A stretch of 64,000 bases of DNA, taken from Nemertoderma westbladi (lineage: Eukaryota > Animalia > Xenacoelomorpha). Position numbers and translations under genes: made by a program. The notes beneath the pieces were generated by a model. That model searched no databases. It saw nothing but the letters and a program-made list of their open reading frames with translations, and was not told where the DNA came from. Location of the stretch: NCBI GenBank assembly GCA_032718475.1, contig JAUCBJ010006179.1, positions 1 through 64,000 on the forward strand, given 5' to 3'. The first letter of the stretch is position 1. Every line of letters starts with the position of its first letter. Positions 5,113 to 58,376 of the stretch are shown piece after piece.

Positions 5113-5190
5113 CTGTTTAGAGTATTTTTATATTTTAGAAACTGTGATTTTTTATATTTTATAGAATTAAATCCCATTTTCTGGGAGCGG

Positions 5191-16485: not shown

Positions 16486-16780
16486 AATTCTAGTCGATTA
16501 AGATATCGCGGCACCCACCGATATACTTGAAAGACAAAATTCTAGAATCAGTGGTTAACGTCCCGAGACAAGTTCTGGAATAAACCGGTGCCCATCTTAA
16601 ATATTAATTATTAATATTTATAAAGTCTGTCAAATTCAGATCCTTTAAAATTCTAGTCAATTAAGATATCGTAGCACTTACCGATACTCTTAAAAAGACA
16701 AATTTCCTAGAATCCAGGATCCCAGTCCCCAGACATGCTCTGGAATAAAATTGTGTCTATTTAATATTAAATAATAAAAT
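16486..16780 (+). repeat. Diverged direct repeat (~130-bp units) in the pol-ORF2 spacer
   Basis: AATTCTAGTC(G/A)ATTAAGATATCG...AAAGACAAA...TCTGGAATAAA occurs twice; also twice in copy A (~2400, ~2642) and in copy C. Confidence 0.8.
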
Positions 16781-17568
16781 TTACGGGAATAAATTTAAAT
16801 TCATATTTTAATGAATTTGATAAATTGTCATTTTTATGCAATTTATAACATTCCCAAAATTCCATTAATTAATAGATCATGGGAGCGGAGATTCACCCTA
16901 TTAAGTGTATTAGTGTGCGAGAATCTCCAATATATAGTCAATAGCCGATAAAATTCATAAAATCATGTATAAAGGGGATATTGACAATTAAAGAATTACT
17001 ATTAAATAGCATCCCAGATCTGTATGCATGAGAATTACCCTAATTCTACCGCTAGCTTTCCATAATGTCACCATAGCAACAACCACGCTAGAATTAGAAG
17101 TGAGTTAAAAGAACAATAGAAAGCTTACCCCATTGAATAGCATAGGGAATAAATAGCACACTGCTAGTATCCAAGGATACATAATAATAACGTGGCATTC
17201 TGGAAGGCACTGACTAACGGACAAATGGCCCGAATATGTACAGTTTGTGACAGTTGTGTTGAATTTGTGCGTTTATAGGTGAATGTTACTGCTAAAGTCT
17301 GTTTACAGTAGCGAGTCGCAATTGTGAAAGTAGCCCTAACTCTCCAGAAAGAACCTGAAGTACATCTAAGCCTTTGGGACGGACAGTGGAGTGACTTGTG
17401 TCGGTTATCGTTGTCGTTGTGTAGCTACTACGTTGGCGAAAAACACAGCGACGACGGTACATCGGCGCTGAGGATCTTGCACTGTCCGGGGGCAGAGAGG
17501 GGTAGGCAGCGACGCCCGCTAGCCTAAATATAAACTCATTATAATATTGATAAACTCATATAGCAGAT

Positions 17569-21814: not shown

Positions 21815-21892
21815 CTGTTTAGAGTATTTTTATATTTTAGAAACTGTGATTTTTTATATTTTATAGAATTAAATCCCATTTTCTGGGAGCGG

Positions 21893-23071
21893 TGTAAAGG
21901 CTTTTGCGGAATTAGCTGGTTATTTTCCCCGCAAAGTACTCTGTAGTTGTTTTAACGGACATAAAAAGCCGTTTCCTTACTGTACCGGTGTTTTAGTGGA
22001 CATAAAAAGCCATTTCTTCTGTATGTGTACTTTAGCGGACATAACTAGCGATTTTATGTCGCAATAAGCCAAATACTCTAAACATTGGAACTCAGATGAC
22101 GACATCTATCAGCTGTGTCCACGTGTAACTTTTTCTTTGTTCTTTGTTCATTCTTTGTTTGGTCGACCAATCAGAGCGGTTTTCACTCTGTGTTGGACAT
22201 AGTATACAGAAACTCACGCAATTCAGTCAGTGTGTGTATTTTTCCTGATGCCAGAAGACCGGCTTTGGAATTTCTGTGTTTCAGGCTTTAGCCAAACATT
22301 AGTAGGCTTGATCATAGAAACGTATAACTGTTATCATAACAAACCAAACCAAACTGGCATACAGCCCATATCATACTATGCATACCTTTCACCGCATTAT
22401 TTTACTGCTATTTACTGTCGGTTATTATTGTATCAGTTGATGGAATATTGTTATATTTGGATAATATCGATAAATAATCATAAAACCCCAATCTTCTTGA
22501 TATACTGTAGGTAAGAGACAGGTTACATATAGCAATTGCGACTTACATTATATTGGTTTTGGAGTGAATCTAATGCTATTTCATAGGCACTACATGTGTC
22601 GGTTGCTGTTCTCCTTATATGTGACTAAAATTAGTGAAGGTCGGCAGATTGGTGTGCAGCATTGTGCGGTAGTGTGCATGAATGTGATAGATAACAAAGC
22701 ATCTCCTAAAGAATGCGCTTTATACGTGAATCATTAGCCATCCCGTTGTGTTTAGTGTAAGTCATAACTCTGTTTACATACTTAGAGCGCCACGTCCTAA
22801 AGGATCTGTTGATATTTCCCGAAAGTGAATAATATTTGTCAGAAATTATATATTAACGATCAGTCGAATAATACAGTAGGCCTACACCGCAATAAGGTCA
22901 GAGCTTGCGAATCCAGTCTCCCGGGTATATCCAGCGGGTGAATGGTCGCGCATAGACTGGCTTCGGCTAATGTAGTGTATCAAATACTCGTCATAGGCTA
23001 AAGTCGATTTATAATCTAGAAGACACCTAAATTTGGCAGGTTAAACTGCTAAAGGTCTGAAAGCGCGAACA
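21893..23071 (+). repeat. 3' LTR of copy B (1179 bp)
   Basis: TGTAAAGG...GCGCGAACA after PPT; CCAAT box at ~22167, Inr-like TCAGT at ~22223, splice donor AG/GTAAGA at 22510/22511. Confidence 0.93.
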
Positions 23072-23403
23072 TACTGTTACACTCACATAATTAGGAATAT
23101 GTACTGTATATAGTAGACCTAAACCCACATTATATCCTATATTATATTTAGTCAAACAAACCTTCCCTTTTTTCCCTTTCCTCTACGACTTCTAGACCTG
23201 CTTCCTTTTCCTCGGCGACTCCTAGACCTGCTCTTCTTTCCCTTCTTACTTCCCTTTCGTTTTTTACGTCTCCTTTTCTCCATTTCATTCCGGCTGGTGG
23301 AACGATTACCACTCTTTTATAGGCTCCTACTTTTCCTTTCATCTAAGGCCCAACTCGGCAAACTATCCAACCCCAAATCACTTTCTTCAGGTTGAACAGG
23401 CAT
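23072..23403 (-). pseudogene. Protamine-like gene copy 1: exon 1 (23403-23162) and part of the intron; nonsense codon; intron interrupted by BEL
   Basis: Reverse complement reads MPVQPEESDLGLDSLPSWALDERKSRSL* then the K/R-rich tract; paralog of 46606 with the same GTTTGT donor and intron sequence. Confidence 0.82.
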
Positions 23404-23878
23404 GATTATTTAAAATATTACCGATAATTACCTCAATAATGTCCTAAACAAAAAACTAAGTTTTGCCTAATTCGCCATGTCAACAACACCCATGACCATT
23501 TTATACTATGTTTTTTTTTTAATTAAATAATTATTGATGTGGATATTCTAGCCGGTAGATGGTACTAATATACTGCATCTTAGTTCAATCTGAATAATTA
23601 ATTCCACGTAGCTAATGTTATTTACTAGCTAGCAGATTTAATTAGCAAGTAAAAAAAATTGTATTAAAATTAAATATAAGACCAGCATGATATTGCCTAC
23701 CGCCTCGTAATTTAACTTGGTTTACACACACACTTTATTAATGATTAGACATTATTGAAATTGATATAGCTAGTATTTTTAATGGCAGCACACAGCGGCT
23801 CATTTATTCATAAAATCAAAAAAATAATATTACGTAACTTGTTTTGTATTATACATTTACATTATATACAAATACACA

Positions 23879-36851: not shown

Positions 36852-37140
36852 TTAGTATAAGTCATAACTCTGTGTGGTATTTAAAGCGCAGCATCTAGAG
36901 GAACTGCTGGTATTTCCCTGAAAATAAACATAGATTTTGGAGATTATATAGTAGAGATCAATCGAATAATACAAAGTAGCCTACCCCTCTCTCTGCCATA
37001 GAATTCAGTCTCCCACATACGGTGGGTCATACGCCACCCTAGACTGACTTCGGCTGTGGTCATATTTTGTATGGGCTGTCAGACATCATAAGACACATCA
37101 ATTAGCAGGTTAAACTGTTAAAGGTCTAAAAGCGCGAACA
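36852..37140 (+). repeat. 3' fragment of a diverged BEL-family LTR
   Basis: AAGTCATAACTCTG...GCAGGTTAAACTGTTAAAGGTCTAAAAGCGCGAACA matches the LTR 3' ends. Confidence 0.85.
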
Positions 37141-37358
37141 GAAAGGGAAGGTTTGTTTGACTAAATATAATATAGGATATAATGTGGGTTTACGTCTACT
37201 ATATACAGTACATATACGTAATTAAGTGAGTGTAACAGTATATGAATTGATATTTACAGGGGAAGAAAGGACATGGAAGATCGAATAAACATGGAAAGGG
37301 AAAGAAAATGCCGAAAGATAAAGTTCTTACAGACAAAATGTTCTTCAAAAAGCTTTAA
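37141..37358 (+). pseudogene. Protamine-like gene copy 2: end of exon 1, intron, exon 2 (37260-37358); 5' part replaced by LTR
   Basis: Closely similar to 46839-47195; exon 2 encodes GKKGHGRSNKHGKGKKMPKDKVLTDKMFFKKL*. Confidence 0.8.
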
Positions 37359-38512
37359 TATCAAACAGTTTATGATACCAGCCAACTGTGGCAGTAATTT
37401 AGACGATTTAAAATAAACAGATTAATTAATAAATTGTGCAGCAATATTATTTGAAACCCTATATTTTTTAAATTACCTATATAAAATCGATAGCTATATG
37501 TGATGGGAAATATAACGCTGAGTTTCCATTACATAAGGTTTACTGACTAATTAATATATATATCAATATCAGAACTTATAAAAGATAGTAACAAACTGCA
37601 TACTGCAGTACTATACTGCCAGACTACTACAGTAGTAAATGCTGATGCTGTACTAAATTTAAAAGTAGGCTGTATGCCTTATAAGAGTAAACTACCTAAA
37701 CCCTCACGGTAGGTCACACAGTATATATAACAACCACAAGGGACCCAATATGAAAAGGTCCTACAAACTGTCTTTTCTTGACAAAGTTTCAAAAAAAGTT
37801 ATTGGAAATCCCACTCATTGGATATAAACAAGCCCAGGAGTCTGCTTAAATTTAACCCAATAACAGTTTACCGAATTTATCGAGTTTAATCTAACTAACT
37901 GGCTTCGTGAACACATCTGCGATCATATCTTCAATGGAAAGATACTTAATAACAACAGTCCCATTCTCAATCACATCACGAACACAATGGTAATGATTAT
38001 CAATATATTTGTCTTCTGACATACTCCTGGGTGCTTGCTTATAGCTATCGCGGATTGGTTATCCTCAAAAATAGTAACCCAAGTCCAAGTCATAACCCAA
38101 CTCATTGAGCAACAATCGAAATGACGCTGCTTCTTGACACACGACACTAAGAGCAACATATTCTGCTTTGGCTGTGGATAATGCTACACATGTCTGCTTC
38201 TTCGATCCCCATGAGATAACAACTCTGCCTCTCATCAACTTAAAACAAAATCCAGATGTGGATTTCCAGTCCACTGTACAGCCCTCCCAGGGAGAATTTC
38301 CACCAAAAAAAAAGGTGAAAAGGTAAACATGGGTCATAAAAAAAGGTAAAAAAAAGGTGGTTAAAAATCAAACCTATACCCAGCATCCATATCCAAACCG
38401 TATCCAGAAAACAAATATTACATTTTGAGATAGATGTTATATATCATATTAACAAATCCAATATAATCTTCCATTATGTTAACATATCAGTTTATTAGGG
38501 CACCTAACTAAA

Positions 38513-40977
38513 CTAATCCTTATCAACTCGTTGCCTTTTCCTGCTGCTCGAAGTAGCCAGCTTCACATCTATATCAGAAAGTTCCTTTGCAATAGAGCAC
38601 AATACATTTTGATGGTCTTTGAGTTGAGTATCTGCTGACGCACGGGATTTATTCGCAATTGAAGCTGAGGTCAAGTCGCAACTGGCCAGAGCAAAAGCCA
38701 GTTGACTATCGGCGACTCTAATCATCGTTTGTACAGAGACACACAGGTTCGTGATAGTATTATGCTTCTTTGTCAGAGATGATTTGCGGAGTTTAAGCTC
38801 CGCTCTTACTTGCAGTTCACGCTCGCTTTCTTCATCTAAAAGCCGCTTTGTCTCGGCAGCTTTTTTAGTTTCAAATTTATACGCTGCTTCTTGTAGACGC
38901 TCAACATTATAGGCAGCCCATGCCTTAGAGGCAGATGCAAGAAGGTCGCTGGTGAAAGCGACATTGTGTGCACCCCCCACCCATTTCACTGCCTCTTGGC
39001 AGTGTCGCAATCCAATGATTGTTGACCTCTTCATGGATGACCGCGACTTATAGATAATTCTTCGATTATCTGCAAAACCTCGTTCAGGCCCGGCGTTTCC
39101 ATGTGTTATAGCAGCCATATTGGCTAAGAAGCGACTAACATTTTGATATGCTTTAACTGAAGTATGGACTCGCAGCTGGTTCTTTGTGTCACCCCAAAAT
39201 ACGCTCACATCCTCATCCGACACATTCAACTGGTCTTCACTAAGTTCTTGAGAAGCAAATTCTTCATATTCCTTGACTACAGTTTGTCCATCTATGGAGT
39301 CACTCGCAGCCACTTTTGGAAACAGCTGTGTCAGATACGTGAGGTAGCGCACACCTGCAGCTCCACCTTCAGCAGTTTGGGCGAGATAAGGATCAACAAC
39401 TTGTAGGGAATGAACAGTCTTGTCATTAATTGGGAGGTGATCCAGCAAATATTCTGACATCTTCATAAGAGCATGTCGAATGGCAATTTTCACTTCTGGA
39501 GTTTTCAGCAGATTGTCGGGATCATCGATGGTTCCAAGCTTAAAGTCAGAGCGCCAATTCTCAGACTTTTGGATTTTAAACTCCTTAAGTTTCTTCCCTG
39601 AAAGTTTCTTACCATTGAGGCGCAGGTTTGTGCAAAAGGTGTACAGAAGGTCATACACCAAATCATTGCTAAGGGAATATAATCTATGGATCTGAGGTGT
39701 GTATTTCTGGAGGGTGAGGAGAAAAGGGCGGAATATTGCACAGATATTCACGACTAATTGCAGCATGAGAGGAGTACGCTTGTCAAATATAACATTGTCA
39801 ATTTGTTTGAACCGGGCTGTCTTGACAAATTTAGCAGTTGATACATCCCGACTGGTTTTACAGCCTGCAAAGAACACTCGTAGGGCAGGAAGCTGCTCGA
39901 GTAGTCGTGCTGCTACTGGGCCTGTCATTAACCAGCGTGAATCAACATGGTGCAGAATTATATGCTGCTCCACATCTTCTGCTATCTGGACCAACCTAAA
40001 GTCTTCTCGCCGAGCAGAAGAATATTTGAATACAAAATGTACATCAGTGGCAAATCCATCAAAATCAAATAGACCAGCACTGGAAATCGCTGTAAGGAAA
40101 GTCCGAAACCCTGAATGTGCTGGATGCAGGGGACAAGTTCCAAAATCAAACAATGGAGAAAACCCATGTGACTCCAGGTATATATTCACTTTCCGGAAAA
40201 AAGCCTTGTTTACATTGGGACCATCCATGGATAAATAGAGCCAGGAAGACAAATCAATGTTGGAAAACTTCGAAAATAGATGTTCCTCAAATTTTTTCAC
40301 CATTATGTCCGAAGTTGCATGACCAAAGAAAATGGATTGCAGAAACGTTTATAACTCGCCCCTTCTGTGGTGAAAAAAATTGTGCATAAACATCACACTG
40401 TTTCTCCACCTTCGCGTTTGTGGTCTCATCAAAGTGAATACCAAAGATAAAACCATCAGAAATTAACTAACAGCTGCACCTTCTTCTGGGCGAAATAAGG
40501 ACCAAGGCCGTGTCCAACAATGTAACTCGCTTTAGTTTGTTTAAGCTGCATCCCTTTGATAACACTAGACGAACACTAGGCTTTCAAAATTATCACACAT
40601 TCAGCCTTTGTGCATAGGTCTTTTGGAGACAAGATATGGCTAATTAAAGGTTGCGTAGAGGTTGAGACCTGCACCTCCAAGGGAACCATATTCGAACTAA
40701 TACTCGATTGGGATGGGATTGTAGGTGGACCAAGGGTTAATGTCGGTGTTTGGCAGATAGATTGTACATTCCGGATGTGTAGAGGTGTGGCATGGTGAAC
40801 GCGAAGAGCGGAAAGGCCACTGCTTTTAACCGACACGGTTTTATTGCAGGCAATGCAGTGAGCCAATCCAGAATCATTCTGAACCGGCCGAAACACTTTC
40901 CCAACTGTCAGCTCTGGGGATGTCCTGAGTTTTTCGTGCTCCCACTCTACTCGCCATTTGGAAGCGTTGGATGGCAT
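38513..40977 (-). pseudogene. hAT-like transposase with BED-type zinc finger, disrupted around 40440-40580
   Basis: CIAC...H..T..H finger, IHFDETT, SMDGPNVN, CPLH, RW, NAGPERGF; C-terminal 596 aa open. Confidence 0.82.
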
Positions 40978-41011
40978 GGTATAATAATATTTTAAAGTTA
41001 TAAGATATAAG

Positions 41012-41560
41012 TTTAATATTATAAAGTTATAATTATAATGCCAGATAATGCCAGAATGCAGTACAACTGTACAGTGTGACAGTAGACGGTAGTGCTGCCT
41101 AATACAGTATGAATACATCAAATCAAATCAAAACATTATACAGCCTACAGAACAGACTCACTGATATCTTTCAGTTTCTGTACGCCTATTGAGTATTGAC
41201 AGACTGAGTCTGAGTGTGTACTGCAGTACTGTGTACCAAACAGAAAAACAGAATGAGTAGGCCTATTGGCCATACAACTGTAGTCATAATATTTAATATT
41301 ATAAAGTTATAATTATAATGCCAGATAATGCCAGAATGCAGTACAACTGTACAGTGTGACAGTAGACGGTAGTGCTGCCTAATACAGTATGAATAAATCA
41401 AATCAAATCAAAACATTATACAGCCTACAGAACAGACTCACTGATATCTTTCAGTTTCTGTACGCCTATTGAGTATTGACAGACTGAGTCTGAGTGTGTA
41501 CTGCAGTACTGTGTACCAAACAGAAAAACAGAATGAGTAGGCCTATTGGCCATACAACTG
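41012..41560. repeat. ~280-bp tandem duplication upstream of the hAT transposase
   Basis: 41012-41280 and 41292-41560 are near-identical. Confidence 0.9.
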
Positions 41561-43571
41561 AAGTCCTACTAGTAATATTTGGATAAATAATATAAATTGG
41601 AAACGCGCCTGTACCATTAAGATTGTATAACACGACTTTACATATTGATATATCAATATCATCTGGGGTTGTTAAAAAAAAGGTAAAAAAGGTAAATGGC
41701 TAGAAAAAAGGTAAAAAAGGTAAAAAAAGGTGCAAGTGGGAGCACTGACTGTATCACCGGCCCAATCTGCATCACTGAATCCTTCCAACACAATCCCATC
41801 TTCATTCCCCCTTCTATAGGATAATTTCTTGTCAATGGTTGACTTCAGGTAATGCAAAACTCTCTTCGTGGCAACCATATGTTCAGTTCCTGGATTGAAA
41901 TGAACCTGGATAGAACACCACCAACAACATATGAAATATCAGGTCTTGTAAAAGTCGATAAAATTAATAACCCACCAACAATACTTCTGTATAATTCAGA
42001 ATATTTGGGATCAATTTTCTCGGAAGGTGAATTCTGAGAACTAATAAAATCAATACAGGGTGTACTAACTGTCTTACCGCATTCCGAATTTCTTTAACAT
42101 TGTATTAATAAACAGAGTTTGATCCAATGAAATTGAATCCTTATCCCGAGTGATCTTCATTCCAAGATACCATCTCAACTGACCTTTATTATCACAACTA
42201 AAATCGCTGGTGAATTGTTTAACAAATTCGTTGACTCGAGATTTAGTACCTCCAATACCTAAATCGTCTACAAAAACCACAATAAATAATAAACCACCAT
42301 TGGTTGATTCATAAATAAACAAACAGAAATCCAAATCACATCGTTTAAGTCCTTTACTACTCAAATATCGGTACAGTGTATCATACCAACTCGCTGCAGC
42401 CTGCTTTAAACCATATAGAGCTTTACTCAACTTACAATACAGAACATCAAATTTTATTTTCCAAAATTTTCCGTATTTTTCAAATACTTTTGGCTGTTCC
42501 ACATAAATTTCTTCACTAAGAGTAGCATTCAAGTATGCACTTTTCACGTCAACATGTGAAATCTCATATTCTTTAAGTGCTGATAGAGCTAACATGGTTC
42601 TAAACTTAGTGGGCATTGAAACATGAAGGAACATTTCCCGATATATGACCCCGATATTGTGGATTATCATCAAATATAAAACCACCATAATGGTCTGGTC
42701 TGTTATGAGCACGTTGAGGTCTTCCATTGACATTGTCTGGTTGCTGATCAACCTCCTCGACATTCTCCACAATATCGTCAACATTAAGATTATCACAATC
42801 TCTTCCGATAGCATCAACTGACCACATGATCTAGATCATGTGGTAGATCATTACACTCACTATCATCGAAGAATTCACTCAACTCTTCAAACAAAATATC
42901 ATTTGCTTCATCCGATGATTCTACACTTCTAGTAGTTTCCCCTTTTGATTCGTTGAAAGTAACACTGAGTGTAACATAGACTTGATTATCACAAAATACA
43001 AGATAACCTTTGCTTTGACTGGCATAACCTACAAATATACCCTTTCTTCCTTTGGGATCCAACTTGTATCAAGGTCACATATCTTTAAAAACAACCTATG
43101 AACCAAACACTCTAATGTTCCGAATATCTGGCTTAGTACCATAGAAGCGTTCATAAGGGGCGAGGTTATTAGGAAGCAATGATGTTATACATCTATTCCG
43201 CACATAGCAGGCAGTTTAAACCCAAAACTGTTTCAAAAGATTAGAATCGAGCAACATCGCACGAGCTGCTTCAAAAGCATCCTGAATAATCTCTCAGCCA
43301 TACCATTATGCTCTGGGGTGTGGGGTACAGTGTACTCATGATTAATTTTATTCTCTACACAAAATGCACTCAATATCTTTGAAGAATACTCACCACCACA
43401 ATCCGTACGAAGATTTTCAACAACCAACTCCGGTAATCCGACTTCAGCAATATATTGTTTGAATTTATCCATTGCCTCCGATTTGGTCTTGATAAAATAC
43501 ACAGTAGCAAATCTGGAGAAGTCATCTATAAAAGAAATTACATACCGATAACCACCAAATGACTCAACTTC

Positions 43572-44013
43572 AATTGGTCTACAGAGATCAGAATACACCA
43601 ACTCAAGTGGTTTTTTCGTTGTCCTCTTCGTCTTCTTCGGGATTGAGGCCTTAATTATCTTGGACATAGAACATGGTTCACAGAAATCCAACTTGCTATT
43701 CGCCATATTTTTCATACATGGCAAACTTGAAAATAATTGTCTCAAATCAGTCTTATTGACATGACACATTAAATGAAGGCATAGGGCACAATAATTGGTC
43801 TACAGAGATCAGAATACACCAACTCAAGTGGTTTTTTCGTTGTCCTCTTCGTCTTCTTCGGGATTGAGGCCTTAATTATCTTGGACATAGAACATGGTTC
43901 ACAGAAATCAAACTTGCTATTCGCCATATTTTTCATACATGGCAAACTTGAAAATAATTGTCTCAAATCAGTCTTATTGACATGACACATTAAATGAAGG
44001 CATAGGGCACAAT
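43572..44013. repeat. 221-bp tandem duplication in the Copia integrase N-terminus
   Basis: MCHVNKTD...SDLCRPI is encoded twice (43572-43792, 43793-44013). Confidence 0.92.
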
Positions 44014-44535
44014 AATTATCATTATTGTCTTCCTCAATGTTTGTATTATCATCATTACATTTTGAACACGCTGCCACCGAATAACTGCAATTCTCAATAA
44101 AGAACAAATCACTATTGACTGTAAGTGGAATTCCGCCGCAGTTGCGTCCACTGCCACTCCCGCCACAGGGCACCCTCGGCCGGAAACACCAGTGATTGGG
44201 GCGGGGCAGGTTGCTGCCCCCTGCGGACATTGTGATTTAAAATGACCTACTTCATGGCAGATATAGCATTTCCCCTTAAATTTCGAAATTTTGCTTGCAG
44301 TTGCTGCAACCAAGGAATTATCTTGCAAATCTGATACAACATTCTTGGCCTTACAAAAATCAGCATAGTTTATCAAGGCCAGTCGAACTTCATCAAATGA
44401 CTCAGAATCAATAAAATTTCTCGCAGTAACGAAATTGTCATATTCTGATGGCAGACCATTGAGGATCACATTTACTAACATTGTATCACTCACTCTGTCA
44501 CCCAGGTTGGAATTTATGTAGAGTTTGCTCAACAT

Positions 44536-46112
44536 GTGTGGCGCGGATTAAGGATCCTGGCGCGTAGTGACAGGGGCGTGTGGCGCGAATTAAGGATCCT
44601 GGCGCCTAGTGACAGGGGCGTGTGGCGCGCATTGAGGATCCTGGCGGTCCTGGCGCGAATATGGATGTAGGGTTACGTTAGGACAGTAGGAGGTAGCGTA
44701 GCAGTGCACTGGCAACACATCCCACTCTACAGGTCTATTTGAAATTATTCCATAGGTTTAAAAAGGTTGAAAAATGTCCGCTCGCTTCGCACCTACCTAC
44801 CAGCCTACTCTTAGCACTGTCTGGCTGTGGACAAATGGAAACGGACAGATTGAGCATGACCATTCAGCAATTAAAAACATGACTTGTTTCAAAAGTTTTT
44901 CAATTGTCAGATTCTTCAAACCAATAAGACCATGACAGCCTGCATGATTCAGCAGAATTCCCATGCTCGCTACGCTCGCAATTTAATTACATCTGCATTT
45001 CTGTATTTGAAAACAGTCGGTTTGCCTACTTTAAATGCTGAAATGTTAAAATTTTCGTGCTCGCTATGCTCGCATCTTGATCACATCTGCATTTAAAAAC
45101 AGTCAGTTAACGTTGACCTACTACTACTACAACTACCAACTACCAACTTACTTAACGAGCAGCGCGCATATTGAATGTTAACCTAACTTACTTAACGAGC
45201 AGCGCGCATATTGAATATTTTTGGGTTGTCTTAATCTGTTGTTTCATGCATTATTTTCAATATTACTTATTTTTTGAACTTAAACTTATACATTGCATAA
45301 TCTACAGTTAGACCTATTCATTAACCTAACTTTAATCTAACTTACTTAACGAGCAGCGCGCATATTGAATGTTTTTGGGAATGGATAGTACGCATATGGG
45401 GGTTGCTAATGTGTCTTTGGCTGTATATTACCTTACTTGTTATACGGCGTTGAAACTGAGCGTTTTGAGGTTTTTGTTTTTATAATAATAGTACGAGAGC
45501 TACTTAGAGACACGATTAGATTTTTACTTTATGTAAGTTTGGATTAAAATCTATTTTATTCTGGAGACTTTTGTTTTTTGATTTTGTTTTCGACTTTGTT
45601 TATATTATATTACATATAGGACCTACTTAGAACTATCTATTCTATTAGTGCTTTATTTAGGTGGCGGGAATTTCGAATTGAATTTAATTACTCCATTATG
45701 CTTTATTAATATAATAGGTCTGACGTAGCCCGGTAGGGCGAAAACGTTCACCAAATCCAGCGTTTTCATTACAATATTCAGCCAGTGTAGACCCCTAATA
45801 CTTACCTATATGCTATATTTTGCTTATGGTAATTTATTATTACTACAACTACAGCACTATCTGACTATTACTGTCACACTGTACATATGTTAACATAATT
45901 GGAAAATTTACTTGTTCGCTACGCTCGCATTTTAATGTTAAAATACTGTAGGACTACAGCATTATAAACTGATAAATTATTACAATTAAGCAATTACAGA
46001 ATTACTGCAAAATTTCATAGTCAATTGTTGGCTTGGCGCGCATTAGATATCATGGCTGGCGCGATTTTCGTTTAACCAGAACGCGTGTGGCGCGCTTTTT
46101 GTCAGTAGGCCT
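44536..46112. mobile_element. Probable non-autonomous DNA element remnant(s) truncating the Copia 5' end
   Basis: Three ~42-bp units (TGTGGCGCG..AGGATCCTGGCG) at the left, TGGCGCG motifs again at 46030-46095, three AACTTACTTAACGAGCAGCGCGCATATTGAAT copies; no paired TIR found. Confidence 0.4.
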
Positions 46113-46605: not shown

Positions 46606-46989
46606 ATGCCTGTTCAACAGGAAGATAGCGATTTAGGGCTGGATAGTTTGCCGAGTTGGGCCATAGATGAAAGGAAAAGTAGGAGCCTATCAAAGAGTGG
46701 TAATCGTTCCACCAGCAGGAACGAAATGGAGAAAAGGAGACGTAAAAAACGAAAGGGAAGTAAGAAGGGAAAGAAGAGCAGGTCTAGGAGTCGCCGAGGT
46801 AAAGGAAGCAGGTCTAGAAGTCGTAGAGGAAAGGGAAAGAAAGGGAAGGTTTGTTTGACAAATATAATATAGGATATAATGTGGGTTTAGGTCTACTATA
46901 TACAGTACATATTCCTAATTACGTGATTGTAACAGTATATGAATTGATATTTACAGGGGAAGAAAGGACGGGGAAGATCGAAGAAATGA
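46606..46989 (+). CDS. Protamine-like basic protein, 91 aa (exons 46606-46848 and 46957-46989)
   Basis: Acidic leader MPVQQEDSDLGLD followed by KRRRKKRK, SRSRSRR x2 and GK repeats; phase-0 GT-AG intron of 108 bp; AATAAA at ~47109. The sperm-protein role is inferred from composition only. Confidence 0.72.
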
Positions 46990-48284
46990 TGAAAATGAAA
47001 GAAATTGCCGAGAGATAAAGTTCTTACAGACAAAATGTTCTTCAAAAAGCTTTAATATCGAACAGTTTACGATACCGGCCAACTGTGGCAGTAATTTAGA
47101 CGATTTACAATAAACAGATTAATTAATAAATTGTGCAGCAATATTATTTGAAACCCTATATTTTTTAAATTACCTATATAAAATCGATAGCTATTTGTAC
47201 TATTAGAAATCACTAGCTGCCTGGTAAAACAATAATGAAAAAAAACACTAGCTAACTAATATAAGAGAGTTATAATAGGTCTACACAATAACATACTTAC
47301 CAAGGACTAACATAATATTGACATATTCAGGGGAGGGCACTCCCCCAGTATGCGTTAATCGAAGTAGAGTCTGGTTCATCTTATTATATTAAAATTTAAT
47401 TAGCTTATAATATAGGCCTACACCAGTTTTATGTGACCAAGTTGGAGTACGGCTGCGCTGTATGGTGTGACATCTCTCATAGGTTGCTCTGATCTCTTAG
47501 ACAACCTCGGAACTGATATCCTTAAACTAGCTACTGTAGCACCGAAAAGGAATGCAACCTACAGCCCTTCTCCTCAAGACCGGATGCCATTATTTTGTCT
47601 AATGTCGTTTTACAAAACTGTCCACGGCCTTACACAAACTTATCTTTTTAACAAATTTATTCACCTACACAGTAGTTGGCGAAAAATAGTACTCGTCACA
47701 CTTACCCCCTAACAACAGTCACAAACACCTCAGAAATCAGTTTTAACTAACAATTATAACGTCCATATTTCGCATATTATATCATATATATATCATATAT
47801 TATATCATCCATATTTCGTGAATATATATAACACCCTGTTTAAGCTAATATAAATAAGTATTACCTTGCTAATAAATATTAGGACCCCACTATTTATGAT
47901 TAAAATTTCATGCGATTAGGATTTGTATAATAATTTAGTGTGCCTCCCATACCTACGTAGGTTGTGGGTGGTGGAGACTTGTTCCAAATTAAGACAATAG
48001 AATGAGTACAATGTAATTTGTGGACATGTTAGGCAGGGGGGGGGGGGGGGGGATTCTGAATACCGTTAACAGAATTAATACGCCGTTAGTTTATTACATC
48101 CAATCAACCACCTATAATATAATTTAATCGGTGGGTTAACTAATTCTAGAATTTAGTCTTCATATATAAATAACAAACATTGAAAAAAGTTGTCATACAC
48201 GAATCGCTCTATTAAATTTGTAACACAATTTAAATTAAATAGGATAGATAATAATAACAGGTACTGTATCCGTGTTGGGACGAA

Positions 48285-50120
48285 ATGGCTGCGAAGAAGA
48301 AAGGGAATAGAAGCAGGTCAAGGAGTCGTAGAGGGAATGGGATGAAAGGGAAGGTTTGTTTATTTATTTTAATATAAATATTTATGTTGGGAAATATTTC
48401 TCTGTCACATCCTTGTCGTTTAGCCCATAATTGGGTTCAAGTTAACCCGGTTTCATCACTGCGCCTTGCATCCTTAAACGATCGCTAAAAGAGTAAGTTT
48501 CTTCTAGGCAGAATACAGTAGTTCTGGGGGAATCGAACTGGAAATAAGTGATTCTTTGTGCGTTTTCCCTGAAATAATGTACAAAGATAACTTTACTTTT
48601 TTAGTTTACTTTCGTGACTCGGTTCTCATTAAAAATCGTAATAACTATTTATATACAGTACTTGTGTGTAAAGTAGCACTTTACAGTGTGATGATCCGAG
48701 TGGCTTTGTTACACGAACGAAAGTTAGTGAGTGAGTGAGTGAAAATAAAGCCACGAGGATCAGAACACTGTAAAGTACTTTGCAACAAGTACTGTATGTA
48801 TGTAGTTTTATTCCAAAATTTTAACATTACGAAATGATTGTATATATATTATAAGTGATAGAAACAGGACAAATTAAATTATTTGCTGTATAAATAAATG
48901 TAAAAGTGACATAAATTATGTTATAAATATGTTAGCTTATATTTATGGTGGCGTGTGGAGCCATGTTATAATAATATAGCTAGGACCAACTGGTTATTAA
49001 TAGATATACCCCGCCTACCGGTAGGTAATGCAGTAGGCCTATCTGGCTGTCAGGCAAATTTCTACCTATTATTTACGTAGTAACCAATGACGGCGTTAAG
49101 TAATGTCCACTAAGGGGACATTACTTAACGGATAACACCAAATACAATACTAAATGTACAGGCCAATAGAATGCTGTAATTTCCTCAAAAGTTGTAAATT
49201 GCTAAATAACAACTCGCTGTTAATACTAACGGCGTTGAGTAATGTTACAATTTTGGAACAAATTACTTTGCAACAAGACAAGTATGTATGTAGTTTTATT
49301 ACAAAATTGTAACATTACGACATGATTGTATATATATTATAAGTAGTAGAAAATGCACAAGTTATATTAGTTGCTGTATAAATAAATGTAAAAATGACAT
49401 ATAAATAAGTTAGCTTATATTTATGGTGGCGTTTGGAGCCTTGTTATAATAATAAGCTAGGCCCTACTGTTTATTAATAGCTATACCCCGCCTATCGGTA
49501 GGTAATGCAGTAGGCCTATCTGGCTGTCAGGCAAATACCACCTATTGTTTACGTGGTAACCAATGACGCCGTAACTTTACAGCTCGCCGTCATTGGTTAC
49601 CACATAAACAAGGGACATTACAACACCCACTCCAATACTAATTATACAGGCCAATACAATGCTGTAATGTCCTTTAAAGTTGTAAAGTGCTAATAACAAC
49701 TCGCTGTTAATACTAGCGGCGTTGAGTAATGTTACAATTTTGGAATAAAATCATTTTACAAAATGCTCAATACAATTCTTTCAGGGTAAGGAAAGTCGAG
49801 GAATCGCGAGAAGAGGTGGAAACGGAAAGAAAATAGGGAAGATCCTGAAGACGAAGAAACATCGACGGATTCTGGCTCGAGAGTTGGGAAATCGGAGTGT
49901 AAAGTACATCCCTGGAATAGGAGAAGTATTCGGAGGTAGTCTCGCCAATAATGGATTCACACGCGCCTACCAGGTCTTAGCGAAGTACATTCTACTAAGA
50001 GAGAAGCTGGAAGATTTCCATCTGTGGCTCTCCAAGATCTGTGGGGACCACTTTTACAAGGCCTATTCCCGTCGAGCTCATAGAGCTATATCGATCATGT
50101 GCGAAGCATACTACTCGTAA
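48285..50120 (+). CDS. BANF1-like: BAF (barrier-to-autointegration factor)-like protein with protamine-like basic N-terminus, 134 aa (exons 48285-48353 and 49785-50120)
   Basis: TKKHRRILARELGNRSVKYIPGIGEVFGGSLANNGFTRAYQVLAKYILL...FHLWLSKICG...MCEAYY aligns end to end with BAF (SQKHR..PMGEKPV..LAGIGEVLG..L...GFDKAYVVLGQFLVL...F..WLKDTCG...WCDAF). Exon 1 encodes MAAKKKGNRSRSRSRRGNGMKGK; phase-0 GT-AG intron. Confidence 0.85.
48410..48530 (+). mobile_element. Diverged SINE fragment in the BAF-like intron
   Basis: GGTTCAAG B-box-like motif and CCTTGCATCCTTAAA...GGCAGAATA..TCTGGGGG, as at 28195-28265. Confidence 0.5.
48653..49745. repeat. Intronic inverted repeat (48653-48797) and ~489-bp diverged tandem duplication (48776-49258 / 49265-49745)
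   Basis: Arms ATACAGTACTTG..CTTTACAGTG..GTGGCTTT / AAAGCCAC..CACTGTAAAG..CAAGTACTGTAT; duplicated units start TACTTTGCAACAAG. Confidence 0.78.
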
Positions 50121-50769
50121 ATGTTAACAGCCGACTCGAGTAAATAAGATAGATTGAGCCCACATATCATTGGATAGTTATGTAACCAGATCTAAATATT
50201 TATTTGCTGTTTGTAGCATTGCATTATATTTAATTATTAATACAAAACTACTCAATTCCGCGCCATCACATGAAATATTCATTCTGTCCACGGTAATTTT
50301 GATTTCGTACGAGCTTGTTGTTCTATTTACTGTTTGTATCGTAAGAATGGTTTTTTTTTTTTTTTTTTTTATTTTTATTAGAATATTTTTATAAAATTTT
50401 TTAATATATCTTTAACTTTAAATCTCATTCGGTCGAATAATTACCGAGTCGATAGCTAATAATTATTGACTTGTGTATTTAATAGAAATGTAATACTGTC
50501 AACGGAATAACCGCCCCCAAATAATTCCAATACTTTTAACGGAATAAATAATTCTCACAAATCGCCCACAAATAATTCCAAAAAAATAATTACAACACTG
50601 TTAACGGTCCAACCACCCCTAATCATTCATTTATGTTTAAAAATACAGAATTCTCGAAAAATACAGCTTGCCAACACATTGTTACTATCAATTAAAAATA
50701 AAAGCAAATACGTAATAATGATAATTCTGCTCTAATATATACACCATGTCCCGTAATATAGTGTCATTT

Positions 50770-51903
50770 TCTGATGACAACTAGTTCCACTCACCGTCGA
50801 TGACCCCATCGACTTACAATCGACCGGCATCAGGTCAGGTCAGGTATTCTAGGTCATTGATCAAGAAAACTTGCCAACTCCATGCAGCATAAAGGAGGTG
50901 CCATCTGTAGCTGCATAGACTCTCTTACTAGGGCAAATCTGGTCCTGTAACTAGGACCCCCTTCGTTCTGGGATAAGGACGCCCTTCTTGGTTCGGGATT
51001 AAGGACCCATATACTTGGCTGCAGGGGTATATGGCCTGGCCAGGCAGATGGTGATCAACCAATGGCTGGTCAGGAGTAGAGTGTTCTCATGTCCACTCTG
51101 AGTACACTTCACTGCGACCTGCACCTGGCATCAGGGGTACAGGACATGACCCAGCAGATGAGCTGCACAGCCAATGGTGGGTCATGTGCGCGAGAGTAGA
51201 TATGGGTGATGGGCCTCATATCTGACTCCACTGCGACACCCACCCTGTGGAATGGCAAACCAGGGTGTGGTATTTGCCCCGAGAGCTGACTCGGCAAAAA
51301 AGCACCCCCCAACCCCCACTATGGATTACATTAGCAATGCGGAGGTCCGGCCACTAGAGGCCAGTGGAATGACTGGACACAATCGGTCTCACAGGCATCA
51401 GTTATCTCCTGACCGGCTGCCTGTCTCACCCCCTACTGGAGAGAGAGCGGCAAACAATTCTTTGAGTCCCTTTCCTGATGACCTTTCTGGCCCAAACCCT
51501 GGGTCACCAGAGAGGCCAGATTGTGAGGGGGAAAGGGATTCTGGAGTTGGAGGCTACTCTCATGTTCCACCCCGACCAACAAAGCCATTGGTGAATCTGA
51601 GGCAAGTCACTAGACTAGCCTCAGTAAACACCCTAACACTCGGGTCCCCAATGCGACAAGGTGAGCTGACTGCCTTGGCAGATAAGCTTTCTCTTAGTGC
51701 AGTGGGTGTTCAAGAGCACCGAATGCAGACTGGACAGACTGATGAAGTTCTGATTAAGGACATGGGGGGCGGTGGGCGACTCGCCCTCGCTTCAGCAGAT
51801 GATAGTGGCAATGGTGGAATTGGTCTATTGATGAATCCAACTGCACATGCAGCATTGGACAAAATAGACCAAATCTCTAACCGCATCATCCGTTGCCACT
51901 TCT
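50770..51903 (+). mobile_element. RTE-like non-LTR retrotransposon 5' fragment (UTR + N-half of APE endonuclease), 3'-truncated; left boundary approximate
   Basis: RLASVNTLTL, AVGVQEHR, GGIGLLM, ISNRII motifs in ORF 51252-51908; GC-rich leader. Confidence 0.8.
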
Positions 51904-52773
51904 ATTAATTAATAAATTGTGCAGCAATATTATTTGAAACCCTATATTTTTTAAATTACCTATATAAAATCGATAGCTATTTGTACTATTAGAAATCACT
52001 AGCTGCCTGGTAAAACAATAATGAAAAAAAACACTAGCTAACTAATATAAGAGAGTTATAATACTGTAGGTCTACACAATAACATACTGTACTTACCAAG
52101 GACTAACATAATAATGACATATTCAGGGCAGGGCACTCCCCTAGTATACGTTAATCGAAGTAGAGTCTGGTTCATCTTATTATATTAAAATTTAATTAGC
52201 TTATAATATAGGCCTACACCAGTTTTATGTGACCAAGTTGGAGTACGGCTGCGCTGTATGGTGTGACATCTCTCATAGGTTGCTCTGATCTCTTAGACAA
52301 CCTCGGAACTGATATCCTTAAACTAGCTACTGTAGCACCGAAAAGGAATGCAACCTACAGCCCCTCTCCTCAAGACCGGATGCCATTATTTTGTCTAATT
52401 TCGTTTTACAAAACTGTCCACGGCCTTACACAAACTTATCTTTTTAACAAATTTCTTCACCTACACAGTAGTTGGCGAAAAATAGTACACATCACACTTA
52501 CCCCCTAACAACAGTCACAAACACCTCAGAAATCAGTTTTAACTAACAATTATAACTTCCATATTTCGCATATTATATCATATATATATCATATATTATA
52601 TCATCCATATTTCGTGAATATATATAACACCCTGTTTAAGCTAATATAAATAAGTATTACCTTGCTAATAAATATTAGGACCCCACTATTTATGATTAAA
52701 ATTTCATGCGATTAGGATTTGTATAATAATTTAGTGTGCCTCCCATACCTACGTAGGTTGTGGGTGGTGGAGA
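51904..52773 (+). repeat. Duplicate of 47118-47976 (3' flank of the protamine-like gene)
   Basis: Near-identical over ~860 bp, from ATTAATTAATAAATTGTGC to GGTGGTGGAGA. Confidence 0.93.
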
Positions 52774-52777
52774 TGAG

Positions 52778-53945
52778 TGTTCGCGCTTTCAGACCTTTGG
52801 CAGTTTAACCCGCCAAATTAGGATGTCTTCTAGATAATAATTCGCTTTTAGCCTATGACAAGTATTTGATTCACTACACTAGTCGAAACCAATCTGTGCG
52901 CGATCATTCACCCGCTGGATATACCCGGGAGATTGGGTTCGACGGCTTAATCGTATTGCTATGTAGGCCTAATGTATTATTCGACTGACAGTATTATATA
53001 ATCTCTGACAATATTATTCACCTTCGGGAAATATTAACAGTTCCTTTAGGACGTGGCGCTCTATCTATATAAACAGAGTTATGACTTAAACTACTCACAA
53101 CGATATGGCTTAGTTATAATTCACATATATGGCGCATTCTTTAGGAAATGCTTCGTTATCAGTCTCACTCATACACAATGCTGCACAATACTGCACACTA
53201 ATCTGCCGATCTTCACTGATTTTAGTCACATATAAAAGGAACACGGACCGAATCATGTAGGGTCTATCAAATAACATTAGATTCACTTCAAACCACTTTA
53301 TCATAAGTCACAATCGTTATATGTAACCTTTCTCTCTTACCTTCGGTATATCAAGAATATTGGGTTTCGGGGTTATTTATCGTTATTCCAAATATAATAA
53401 TTCATCAACCATGTTATGAAGAACTGACAGTAAATAGCAGTATAACAATATAAAAGTATGCAAGAAAGACCAAACATCAGTTTGTTAGTTTGGATTGATA
53501 ACGGATATATGTCCTTATAATTAAGCCTACTAGTGTTAGACTAAAACAGAAAAGCACAAAATATTTCCAAGCCGTTCTCTCCTGGCTCAGGACAGAAAGA
53601 CCAACAACACTGAACACTGATAAGAATAACCTTATTTACAAAGGCTTCCACCCACCACAGAGAAAGAGCATACAGATAGGAAATTCAGTTCAGTAGATCT
53701 GTGATAGGTCGAAATCAAAATCAACTCAAATCTTATTGGCAGATACAGAAAGCAGGGCTGTGGGGCAACTTTCCCAAGCTGGTTGGACAATCAAACGTAG
53801 CCCAGATCCCTTCGCACAGCAAATCAGCCAATCAGCCGGTAGCTTGCGCTATTCGAGCTAGAGATCCCTTTTAGAGTATTCCAGCGCCCTGGGGGGAACT
53901 GGTTAGCAAAGCAAACGAATCAGTTATCCCACAAAAGCTTTTACA
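52778..53945 (-). repeat. 3' LTR of copy C (1168 bp)
   Basis: TGTTCGCGC...TTTTACA on the + strand, i.e. TGTAAAAG...GCGCGAACA on the - strand. Confidence 0.92.
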
Positions 53946-54023
53946 CCGCTCCCAGAAAATGGGATTTAAGTCTATAAAATATACAAAATCACAGTTTCTA
54001 AAATACGAGAATACTCTAAACAG

Positions 54024-55524
54024 TTAGTCTTTCTTGCGCAGACGGCGTTTACGCAGTTTTTTAAAGCTAGCAAGAGTCTTTTTCTCTTTGGGGCGAGCCA
54101 CTTTACAAGGAGGGCTATAACTCCTGGGTGAAGGGTGCAATATGATTGCATCAGAAGGCGTGGGATTATAGTCGGGGTATCCGCCGTTTCAATATGTTTC
54201 TCCTCGAGCTGATTTTCCTCCGCTCATCGTTGGATACGTTCGTCTAAAACTCTCGCCGAGAATAGGGTCGTCCAAGTTCAATATCGTCTTAGAGACTATG
54301 GATTTCCCAATCGAACTGGGATAAAGCCACTCCGTTTACCGCTTGGACTTGCTGTTATAATTTAGGTTTATCTGAGCAAACATAGATTTCTTTTCTGATC
54401 TTTGTAGAATAGCGTCTATCTCTTTTCGTACAACGCTCTCCTCCACCTTGATGACAGGTGGTATCGTGTTAAACGGGAACGATTCCGATTATACGATTGA
54501 ATGGCGATATCGGGTGCCCGTGCCCCAATCCGGCCAGGTAAGATGGGCGGATATTTAGGGAGCCCACAACCTGAGTGCCACCGACTAACGGTTCGGGTAA
54601 CACTGGATCTCTGAACGGTAAGTACAGCTCGGGAGGATCCGTAATACTATTAGGATCGAGAGTTTGAGGTATCACTTGGGAATGAGGAGGTCTGACCGAG
54701 TATTCCGGAACTCTGATCATGGGTTTATTCAATGATCGCTTAAGGCGCGCGACCGTAGGTGATACGTCGAAAAGGTTTCGCTCGAAACTCCTATAAGTAT
54801 ATCGCGTAAAACTGTGTTTAGCGCAGCGTCTCCGCGGATGTTTATGCCTTTCGCTTTGCTGGTTAGGTCTGGGGCATTCGTCACAGTAATACCAAAGACG
54901 CACGTCTTGAAGGGGAAACGCGGGTGATCGCTCTCCAGTTTTACAATATTCCTCCATCTGTTCGAAGCTATCTGGAACGACAGGTAGCGATCGATCGGCG
55001 GTAAGATACATCATCGTAAAATAGAGCCGTTTGAGTTCCATCATAGGATCTGGATGTATACCTTGAGGATATCGAGTTTCGAGGTTTTGTTGACTGGCAA
55101 CATTGAGATAGGTCTCTCTTAGGAATTCTAGATAATCGTTAAAACCGTTACGTTTATCAGGTTCTTCAACGTCTTCTCTTTCGAGTTTGTTTCGAATAGG
55201 ATTTTCGCATTAGAATTTTGGTTTATCGTTTCGACTCCTCTGGGTAGGATATGTTCGACATAGTCCGTATCGTGTAAATCGATAGAATGGTCAATGGTTA
55301 AGAAGTCCATATACATACCATTACAATGCGTGTAGCGAGCGGTGAATTTTCCATAGTCCAATTCATGCGTAAGTTACTTCCAGGAAATCGTAGGTTCGAT
55401 ATAACAACCATCATCCTTCGTAGTAGTTGGACTAGTATCACCGCGTATCAAGCTATCAACAAACACTTGAAAGTAGATTATATCGCTCCCTGATACCAAG
55501 ACCATCTTCTATCAACTCCGTCAT
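54024..55524 (-). pseudogene. ORF2 remnant of copy C (exonuclease and knuckles deleted at ~54187)
   Basis: Homologous to 17569-18930 joined to 21652-21814. Confidence 0.85.
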
Positions 55525-57175
55525 ATCTGCTATATATGAGTTTATTAATATTATAATGAGTTTATATTTAGGCTAGCGAGCGTCGCTGCCTACCCCAATC
55601 CGCCCCCGGACAGTGCGAGATCCTCAGCACCGATGTGTCGTCGCCGCTGTACTTTCGCCAACGACGTAGCCGCACAACGACAACGACAACCGGTACAAGT
55701 CACTCGACTGTCCGTCCCAAAGGCTTAGATACACCTCAGGTTCTTACTGGACAGTTAGGGTTACTTTCCCAATTGCGACTCGCTACTGTAAACACACCTT
55801 AGTAGTAACATTCGCCTATAAACTCACAAATACCACACACACAACTTGTCACAAATTACACACACTCGGGTCACTTGTCCGTTAGTCAATGCCTTCCAGA
55901 ATGTCACTGTATTATTATGTATCCTTGGATACTATCAGTGCACTATTTATTCCCTATGCTATTCAAGGGGACAAGCTTTCTATTGTTCTTTTACTCAATT
56001 CTAATTCTAGCGTGGTTGTTACTATGGTGACATTATGTAAAGCTAGCGGTAGAATTAGGGTAATTCTAATGCATACAGATCTGGGATGTTATTTAATAGT
56101 AATTCTTTAATGGTCAATGTCCTGTTTTATACATGACTTTATGAATTTTATCGGCTATTGACTATGTTTGGGAGACTTTCGTACACGCATACGCATAATA
56201 ATATAAATCTCCGCTCCCTTGATCTATTAATTAATGGAATTTTGGGAATGTTATAAATTGCGTAAAATGGCAATTTATTAAATTCATTAAAAGACATGAA
56301 TTTAAATTTATTCCCTGAAATTTTATTATTTGATAATTAAATTGACATATTTTGATTCTAGAACATGTCTGGGGACACAAGATCCTTAATTTTATGACAA
56401 TTGTCTTTTTAAGAATATCGGTAAATGCTACGATATCTTAATTGACTAGAATTGTTGAAGGATCTGAATTTTACAGATTTTGATCTATTAGATTTGCAAA
56501 TATTAAATAATTAATATTTGAGATGGGCACCGATTTATTCCAGAACTTGTCTGGGGACGTTAACCACTGATTCTAGAATTTGTCTTTCAAGTATATCGGT
56601 GGGTGCCGCGATATCTTAATCGACTAGAATTACAGATGGTCAAAGGGTTTAACAGATTTATTTTGCGTTATACGCTACTGTTAAAGGGACATCACGCTAC
56701 TATATGTATTATTTAATATACGGTATGAGAGCAATATCGCACGAAGCAATGTCAGTGTGAAGAGGCAAGTCGTTTCCAAGGTCTACCCAGAGCTTGGTTT
56801 AGCCGAGACACGAGGATCTGAACTTTGCATTCCTAATACTCTGCCTACCAATAATACTTGAATATAGTAGTGGCTTTATTGTACTTTAATAAGTACGGAC
56901 ATTTCATCTTACTGTAGTTACGTATTTATAATATAATACGGACAGTAAGGAAAGAGAAAAAGAATTATTTCTCGCCGTCGCACTAAATATAATATAAGTA
57001 ATTACGTACACAATAAACACGAATATATTGCACTATTCTACTAAATGATCGCTAAATAATATTTTACTAAATTAAATAAAACGATTATAATAAAATTACA
57101 TAGTAATACATACCTAAATATAAAAATAATAAAATAATGTAAAATAATAGAGTCACACGCCCACTCCGAACAATA

Positions 57176-58305
57176 TTAAGTTGGGGAGTCCCTAGATGTC
57201 GGTTGGATTAGGGAAGTGGTCGTGGGAAGAGTTTCTTGCCTTCCATAGTTTCCGGAGAGCTCTCTGTCTCTTTCCAGTAAACATAAACGACCCACTGGGC
57301 GATTGAGCTGTTGAGTCTCAAAGACTATCCCTGGTTTCTTAAAGTTACGCCGCATTACGACGAGTTCTACTGATCGCACCAAACCATCGCTCGAGATATG
57401 AGTCTCGATGATACGTCCTGTTTGCCATCGCTTACGTGGGAGATCGGGGTCCATAATAAGCACCATGTCTCCAGCGCTGACGTTTTCTTGCTGCGCAAAC
57501 CACTTAGTTCGAAGTTGTAGAGTGGGCAGGTAATGTTTCTCGAAATGGTCAGCGAAACGACGGGATAGCAACTGCATAAGTTGCCAGGTTCGATGGCAGT
57601 ACTCATCTCCGTCTGTGATCTCAGATCGTGGGAGCATGGCTACGGGTTTCTTCAGTAGAAAGTGCGCGGGTGTTAGCGCTTCCAGGGAATCAGGATTTGA
57701 AGAGACTGGCATAAGCGGTCTTTCGTTGAGATAGGCGGCGATTTCCTCCATTAACGTCTGCAATAGTTCGTCGGTGAGATAAGCGCGACAAGGCACAATA
57801 AAGTGGAACGCAGTCTTCACGCTCCTAATCAATCTCTCCCAACTTCCTCCCCACCAAGGGGCGTCGGCGGCGTTGAAGGTCCAGCTAGACGCTGTTATCT
57901 TTAGCTGATCGTCCACCTGTCTTTTGTTCCAGTCCTTTACGTAAGCTTGAATTTCGTTGTTGGCGCCAATGAAGTTCGTTCCCTTATCCGATCTCATCGT
58001 GTTACTGGTTCCGAAGCGAGCGATCTGTCGTCGTAAACTCAACACGAAGCTGTTGGTGGATAGATCGTTTACCATATCGAGATGGATAGCTCTACAAGTC
58101 ATACAAACGAAGATGACACACCATCTCTTGACTATAGTCCGGGCACGATATACTTCAATAGGGCCAAATAAATCCACACCGGTATTAGTAAAGGGTGGTT
58201 CATAGAAGCTTACTCTTTCCCTAGGTAATTCTGCCTCTCGCTGTGTTAAAGGCCTACTGAATGCTTTCCTACAGGGTATGCAGTTCCTAAGAACTTGGTT
58301 CAGAG
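57176..58305 (-). CDS. pol: BEL/Pao integrase of copy C (open frame, N-terminally interrupted)
   Basis: CIPC, GVDLFGP, SDKGTNF, WGGSWERL, LNERPL, LTPAHFL, DGLVRSV; no stops. Confidence 0.9.
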
Positions 58306-58376
58306 ACTTGGTTGATAAAACAATATAGCAATAGTCTGATATCAACACCTGATAACTAGGCCTACTGAACTGTATC

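Follow-up and report, generated by a model that had tools for sequence, protein, structure and literature searches.

A tailed BAF paralogue as a candidate sperm chromatin protein beside protamine-like genes in Nemertoderma westbladi

BAF proteins and the parentage of protamines

The origin of protamines is a long-standing question, to which the usual answer is histone H1. Protamines are usually short and rich in lysine and arginine, with RS repeats and little acid, and are encoded in rapidly duplicating clusters. A route from H1 through PL proteins to protamines has been argued for molluscs, an annelid, tunicates, a liverwort, and spiders (PMC11607694, available sections). In Drosophila, a general chromatin fold, the HMG box of Mst35A/B, was co-opted in a duplicating gene set; the proteins are described as less basic, and a fold-less sister is not the point there (PMC13148410, available sections). 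Mouse BAF-L (BANF2) is a testis-abundant BAF paralogue that was implicated in the histone-to-protamine exchange in one knockout; fertility was normal in another BAF-L study cited by the same authors (PMC8877947, available sections). BAF is mentioned neither in the main text of PMC13148410, nor in the available part of PMC11607694, nor, by a search for the term, in PMC12216123. In the literature searched, which left out supplements and most subscription papers, no BAF was described as protamine-like or as a sperm nuclear basic protein, and nothing was found on Lys/Gly-rich protamines; mouse BAF-L came nearest, and sperm proteomes could list BAF.

The DNA analyzed here is a window of 64,000 nucleotides of Nemertoderma westbladi (GCA_032718475.1; contig JAUCBJ010006179.1, positions 1 to 64,000, forward strand). 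It contains one gene in which a BAF domain follows a basic tail and, adjoining it 1.5 kb upstream, an intact gene for a very basic protein that lacks the domain. As in the H1-derived PL proteins, a DNA-binding fold with a basic tail is found beside a very basic protein that has no fold; the fold is a winged helix there and BAF in the present locus, and no match to an H1 family was obtained. The locus shares with Mst35A/B a general chromatin fold in a duplicating gene set, but the fold is a different one. BAF-L offers the parallel of a testis BAF paralogue tied to protamine exchange, but it is described as a histone and protamine partner without a protamine tail or a basic DNA-packing role (PMC8877947, available sections). 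We tentatively read the gene as a two-exon, divergent BAF paralogue with a protamine-like tail, probably a sperm chromatin protein, and its neighbor as probably derived by loss of the fold; our confidence in this reading as a whole falls somewhat short of even.

The BAF-bearing gene and its product

The frame of the BAF-bearing gene begins at ATG 48285; joining 48285-48353 to 49785-50120 gives 134 codons without a break, and the stop codon lies at 50118-50120. The spliced 134-aa ORF of the first-pass annotation is thus borne out as an open frame (ATG, phase-0 donor, acceptor, and stop), while the 48353/49785 junction itself is predicted from sequence. The coding part of exon 1 (48285..48353, +) consists of the ATG and 23 K/R/S/G-rich tail codons with an SRSRSRR motif, and ends in the phase-0 donor. 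The donor context is identical at 46848, 37150, and 23162 (-), in agreement with the earlier claim of a donor common to the protamine-like genes. Exon 2 opens with about 20 basic-tail codons (49785..49844, +), in register with the BAF-less exon 2, and the likeness ends there. The sole Met of the exon-2 frame is near the C-terminus and none precedes the BAF domain, so an upstream coding exon is needed.

The predicted intron (48354..49784, +) is a GT-AG intron of 1431 bases in phase 0. It has taken up at least three insertions: a palindromic element of ~165 bases (~48643-48807) and two tandem elements of ~490 bases, reaching out to ~49750, with 25-base terminal inverted repeats and an internal hairpin (copies 82.6% alike). 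Without the inserted elements the intron measures ~323 bases. Rival acceptors are present at 48423 and 48604, with pyrimidine tracts as good as that at 49785; their products would be 40 and 46 aa, respectively, and the unspliced frame gives 30 aa. These features fit a gene that is silent or wrongly modeled, in which the insertions divert splicing or the intron is kept, the product is a basic peptide of 30-46 residues, and the BAF exon has only recently fallen out of use. Such a reading could also draw on the absence of canonical poly(A) signals (no AATAAA or ATTAAA in 50100-50400), on the broken state of two of the three neighbors, and on the alteration of several invariant BAF residues. We consider it very doubtful: the in-register match to the paralogues starts exactly at 49785, the frame is unbroken despite deep divergence, and the fold model is confident over the domain (pLDDT 85-96). 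A 341-base contig (depth 4) from one sequencing run of presumed type, in which 0.10 of the words were present, covers 49740-49849 with 0 differences and is unspliced across the acceptor, which is compatible with DNA or pre-mRNA. Assembly of contigs over 49740-50300 gave 0 joints and 0 loose ends.

When neutral decay of the 402-base frame was simulated at 0.2 substitutions per site, 2% of runs kept it open if no indels were allowed, and 0 of 3000 did so once indels were included. By this measure the intact frame, beside an intron that took repeated insertions, shows long-term maintenance; it says nothing of present expression. Over the 27 codons of the tail that can be compared with the intact neighbor, dS was ~0.8 and dN ~0.2 (dN/dS ~0.25, Fisher p 0.008). 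These estimates show purifying selection on the tail, and exon 1 carries the signal (dN/dS 0.15, p 0.015); exon 2 alone has none (0.41 against 46957, p 0.2; 1.6 against 37260).

The BAF domain (49842..50120, +) is complete and intron-less and corresponds to residues 43-134, with residue 43 aligned to Met1 of canonical BAF. The full domain named by the first-pass annotation was recovered by the Pfam search and structure prediction that it had proposed. PF02961 was the only family match of exon 2 (64 bits vs a cut-off of 25, E 1.7e-17, profile positions 4-70 of 88), and an H1-type winged helix was absent. Human BAF chain 1ci4 was retrieved from the PDB by sequence (E 1.9e-11), with the alignment running out to human residue 87, and the Atlas grouped exon 2 with BAF clusters (score 0.96). 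The AlphaFold model has five helices and a mean pLDDT of 83, with 85-96 across the BAF domain and a low-confidence N-terminus; its input was a 93-row alignment of BAF homologues, which biases the model towards the BAF fold. The top eight Foldseek matches of the model were all BAF (1ci4: E 8.8e-05, TM 0.82 by target). A word-indexed protein search with exon 2 returned four candidates, none of which passed. No tRNA or Rfam matches were found, and metagenome scans for relatives gave 342 pattern matches, 0 confirmed, and in a second scan 0 matches.

Compared with BAF/BANF1, the tailed protein has the same domain and fold and has kept the helix-hairpin-helix DNA-binding residues; it differs in the 42-45-residue basic tail on a separate exon, in the net charge of the domain (+10 vs -1), and in its partner-binding surfaces. 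Identity to human-type BAF is 29/89 residues, and is ≤35% to any of the aligned homologues. By hand count, 14 of 20 conserved columns are kept vs 15 of 69 others (p 1e-4), an agreement favored by the retrieval of the homologues with a BAF-bearing query. In helix 1 and the helix-hairpin-helix, residues K6, H7, R8, G25, I26, G27, V29, and R75 are unchanged; at the positions that we take to be DNA contacts, L30F, N70H, K72A, and Q73Y are altered. The DNA-binding motif appears intact, and binding is predicted. Among 92 aligned homologues the mean net charge of the domain is +1.8 ± 2.9, with a maximum of +8, so that +10 is outside their range. Changes on the dimer face (G47A, L50I, K54E, W84M) and in loops (F10I, E13R, P14E, K18R) are rare among homologues. 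G47 is the dimer centre, and G47E abolishes DNA bridging by BAF dimers (PMC5638020 and PMC6212729, available sections). A homodimer of the tailed protein is plausible, since Ala at position 47 is found in 6/92 homologues as well. The lamin-contact and LEM-contact residues of BAF are listed in the available part of PMC6212729. At these positions only two of six lamin contacts are identical (A12 and A87 kept; V11L, P14E, E83I, F88Y) and three of eight LEM contacts (F39, L52, and W62 kept; Q48K, L58D, E61L, R37N, V51L). Loss of lamin and LEM binding is suggested at most, because position 58 varies widely among homologues.

With phmmer, 132 BAF hits at E ≤0.001 were obtained from 1.84 billion cluster representatives (a single protein for each 50% cluster), and none has a comparable basic tail. 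The first-pass annotation had regarded such a protein as not known to be described, and its view holds for these hits and for the literature searched. Gene callers often overlook a short first exon, and tailed BAFs may exist elsewhere. Several of the hits (P0001-P0004, P0006, P0007, P0010, P0013, P0014) have two BAF domains in tandem; unnamed assembly products account for some of these, and others may be annotation fusions. The tree proposed earlier, against the canonical BAF of the species, was run with BAF homologues only: 91 of the 132 hits and the query were taken in and 41 left out (40 unaligned, mostly long, multi-domain, or partial; one <70 residues). In this quick tree (92 rows, 89 columns) the BAF domain forms the longest end branch of all rows (1.7), which is deep; 2/88 inner branches are supported, and it remains an unplaced long branch also with respect to the vertebrate BANF2 clade.

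The whole 134-aa protein contains 17 Lys and 17 Arg (25% K+R), with a net charge of +26 and a pI of ~11. The "~45 basic residues" of the first-pass annotation is wrong as a count and is the length of the tail: residues 1-45 carry 18 K+R, of 34 overall. The best 40-residue window has a net charge of +16, compared with a maximum of +9 in the 132 BAF hits.

Protamine-like neighbors and the order of events

The intact BAF-less gene (46726..46989, +) has an exon 1 at 46726-46848, a 108-base intron, and an exon 2 at 46957-46989, with AATAAA downstream at 47109 and 47125. Its 51-aa protein is 61% K+R and 27% Arg, with five RS, one acidic residue, a net charge of +30, and a pI of 12. It is small, unstructured, and very basic and has RS repeats, and so matches the protamine-type profile; the rule of thumb for P-type proteins is 30% Arg, and its 27% is just below. 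With exon 1 of this gene, a family search gave no match and no H1 family, a word-indexed protein search found nothing, and the Atlas gave nothing usable. If translation of this gene began at an ATG farther upstream, the protein would gain a partly acidic leader of 40 residues (46606-46725); where the 23-kb copy has TATAAAA, the sequence is TATCAAA. The stretch may represent either a weakened promoter or the leader of a precursor. The corresponding 81-codon exon 1 from in-frame ATG 46606 was set aside because the ATG context at 46726 matches that of the BAF gene and because the 23-kb copy carries both a stop and a TATA box in the matching stretch.

The other copies are incomplete. A 3′ fragment (37140..37501, +) contains ~10 bases of exon 1, the intron, and an exon 2 from 37260 whose frame is open for 32 codons; it is 94% identical to the 46.8-kb copy and is preceded by a retrotransposon end. 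A 5′ fragment (23071..23455, -) has a TATAAAA ~35 bases before ATG 23283, a one-base deletion before the donor, and an intron cut at 23071 by a retrotransposon end, so that the copy (23283-23071, -) has no exon 2. A further stretch (51904..52773, +) is a 97.7% copy of 47118-47977, which comprises the intact gene's 3′ end together with the spacer leading to the BAF gene; it ends at a third retrotransposon end and is the trace of a further cluster duplication. The cluster is small and unstable. Of the protamine-like copies, only the one at 46.7 kb is intact; the 37260 copy cited by the first-pass annotation and that at 23.2 kb are fragments. "Family" was too strong a word for a window with a single BAF-bearing gene, a single intact gene without BAF, and two fragments.

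The BAF-bearing and BAF-less genes are supported as paralogues by sequence likeness on both sides of the intron, as the first-pass annotation had held. Over its last 51 bases, exon 1 is identical to 46798-46848 at 42/51 positions and to the 23-kb copy at 38/51; over the 17 codons aligned to 46798-46848 there are five synonymous and four non-synonymous differences. For exon 2, identities over the first 57 bases number 38 with 37260 and 35 with 46957. In ungapped scans of the window (~127,900 positions each; 127,888 for exon 2), the paralogue matches were the best non-self matches for both exons, and the best unrelated positions reached 33/51 and 31/57. The gapless alignment to 37260 reported earlier was reproduced (38/57 bases in register, reached by 0/20000 codon shuffles; 8/19 residues, shuffle p 0.003), but it is the exon 1 match to 46798 (42/51) that appears to be the stronger evidence. 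No significant likeness to the BAF-less copies was obtained for intron sequence past the donor or for the 5′ flank and 3′ UTR, with scores reached by 595, 1491, 438, and 1100 of 2000 shuffles. Successive 15-base bins of exon 2 against 37260 have 9, 9, 12, and 8 identities, then 2, 2, 4, and 4, and the drop at 49845 is where canonical BAF begins.

The two histories offered by the first-pass annotation, in which a BAF duplicate gained a tail and later copies lost the fold or a protamine exon was fused to BAF, both stand, with a slight lean to fold loss on sequence grounds. In the second history a protamine-like gene took in BAF coding sequence in frame in exon 2, as a retrocopy or by recombination with a divergent paralogue, giving a chimeric gene with the same likely sperm role. 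We hold this to be only a little less likely than fold loss, and the evidence is divided. The likeness to the protamine-like copies ends within a few bases of BAF Met1, as capture predicts, but a clean boundary is expected in either history if partial folds are selected against. The BAF domain has no intron, as in a retrocopy; the locus is rich in retroelements and rearrangements; the window has three BAF-less copies vs one BAF-bearing; and three tail positions are Asn or Met vs Lys in the intact neighbor. The 3′ part of the BAF-less copies was suspected of holding a BAF remnant, but a frameshift-tolerant profile detected none behind either exon 2, with 54/60 and 60/60 shuffles equal or better (positive control, 0/60), and the idea was dropped. 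Its absence agrees with capture, and fold loss would therefore need a deletion or replacement.

Capture would require that the donor BAF was already very divergent. The divergence of the BAF domain (end branch 1.7, ≤35% identity) appears far deeper than the tail split (total dS ~0.8). The depth argument is soft because of possible gene conversion, the small number of codons (27 only), the unsettled tree, and a comparison made without the species' own canonical BAF; gene conversion between close neighbors could make the tail split look younger. A second argument comes from the end of the BAF-less frame. At the 11 sites at which the exon-2 starts of 37260 and 46957 differ, the BAF gene agrees with 37260 at five, with 46957 at two, and with neither at four, and at both GGA/TGA sites it agrees with the open 37260 frame; the stops at 46987-46998 in the intact BAF-less gene are therefore likely derived. 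The older BAF-less frame, reconstructed from 37260, ends in 13 codons unlike protamine, which also speaks against capture. It is on the divergence depth and the derived stops that our slight lean to fold loss is based.

Under fold loss, a BAF duplicate would first have gained an upstream basic exon; one copy would then have lost the domain, its frame running on into non-coding DNA, as at 37260; and the run-on frame would have been trimmed by stop codons, as at 46987. Three TGA are present among the four codons of 46987-46998. Between 46957-47076 and 37260-37379, 11/60 bases differ in the first 60 and 2/60 in the next 60, a pattern pointing to conversion or rapid change where the coding part ends.

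A protamine-like gene whose sister retains a BAF domain would mean that fold-less protamines can have a parent other than H1, and that composition alone cannot assign one. BAF would then join histone H1 and the HMG box as a third fold behind sperm DNA-packing proteins, with a tailed BAF and a fold-less descendant in one cluster; we put this forward as a tentative possibility, well short of even. If capture is true, the locus still holds an undescribed chimeric chromatin gene. In either direction, DNA cross-bridging and charge neutralisation in one chain would amount to a packing design.

Proposed function and the mobile DNA of the locus

A sperm DNA-packing role of the tailed BAF is likely, as judged from composition only, and the sperm setting is taken from the composition of the neighbor. 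The protein belongs to the BAF family by its domain and is most likely a PL-type sperm protein outside the H1-derived PL class. The BAF domain would bind and bridge DNA duplexes, and the K/R tail would neutralise and condense the bridged DNA. The altered lamin/LEM surface would free the protein from nuclear-envelope partners, and phosphorylation of the RS repeat, a switch familiar from protamine biology, could serve for release. The product might instead be functional outside sperm, as a lineage-specific chromatin or nucleolar protein (in another compacted nucleus, or binding foreign DNA) whose RS/K tail is a localisation or RNA-binding segment. The link to sperm is by composition alone, whole-protein K+R is just 25%, and known BAF roles concern general DNA cross-bridging (PMC5638020, available sections). 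This alternative is unlikely in our view, as the paralogue of the tail has the protamine profile: 51 aa, 61% K+R, RS repeats, one acidic residue, and a rapidly duplicating cluster.

Mobile DNA makes up most of the window and includes, among others, a copia element, a hAT-like transposase, and pol domains of BEL/Pao elements, a type known from animals. Three ends of one BEL/Pao-associated repeat (23071, 37140, 52778), probably ends of LTRs, border parts of the protamine/BAF cluster; they sit inside an intron (23071), at an exon-1 end (37140), and in the duplicated spacer (52778). Insertion may have been biased, or the cluster may have been rearranged through LTRs. The BEL/Pao element at 8625-23071 (+) has a very long first frame (1188 aa), and related copies are at 234-6354 and 52778-58450 (-). 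On the 3′ side of its pol (18385-21814) are several long frames without a Pfam match, one of them Cys/His-rich, a cargo that is unexplained. Broken frames include a transposase-like one at 25750-27634 (+), presumably EnSpm-like by its motifs and without a Pfam match, and copia gag/integrase/RT at 42074-44547 (-), with Pfam matches. A frame at 51210-51908 (+), without a Pfam match, is by its motifs presumably LINE endonuclease-like. The hAT-like transposase (38513-41127, -) has 23-35% identity to its 33 hits, 31 of which are unnamed, a sign of a poorly sampled host lineage. At 58356-63200 (+), adjoining a Pao copy, a 1614-codon frame with tandem repeats encodes a Ulp1-type C48 protease domain (E 8.7e-06) and is probably transposon-borne.
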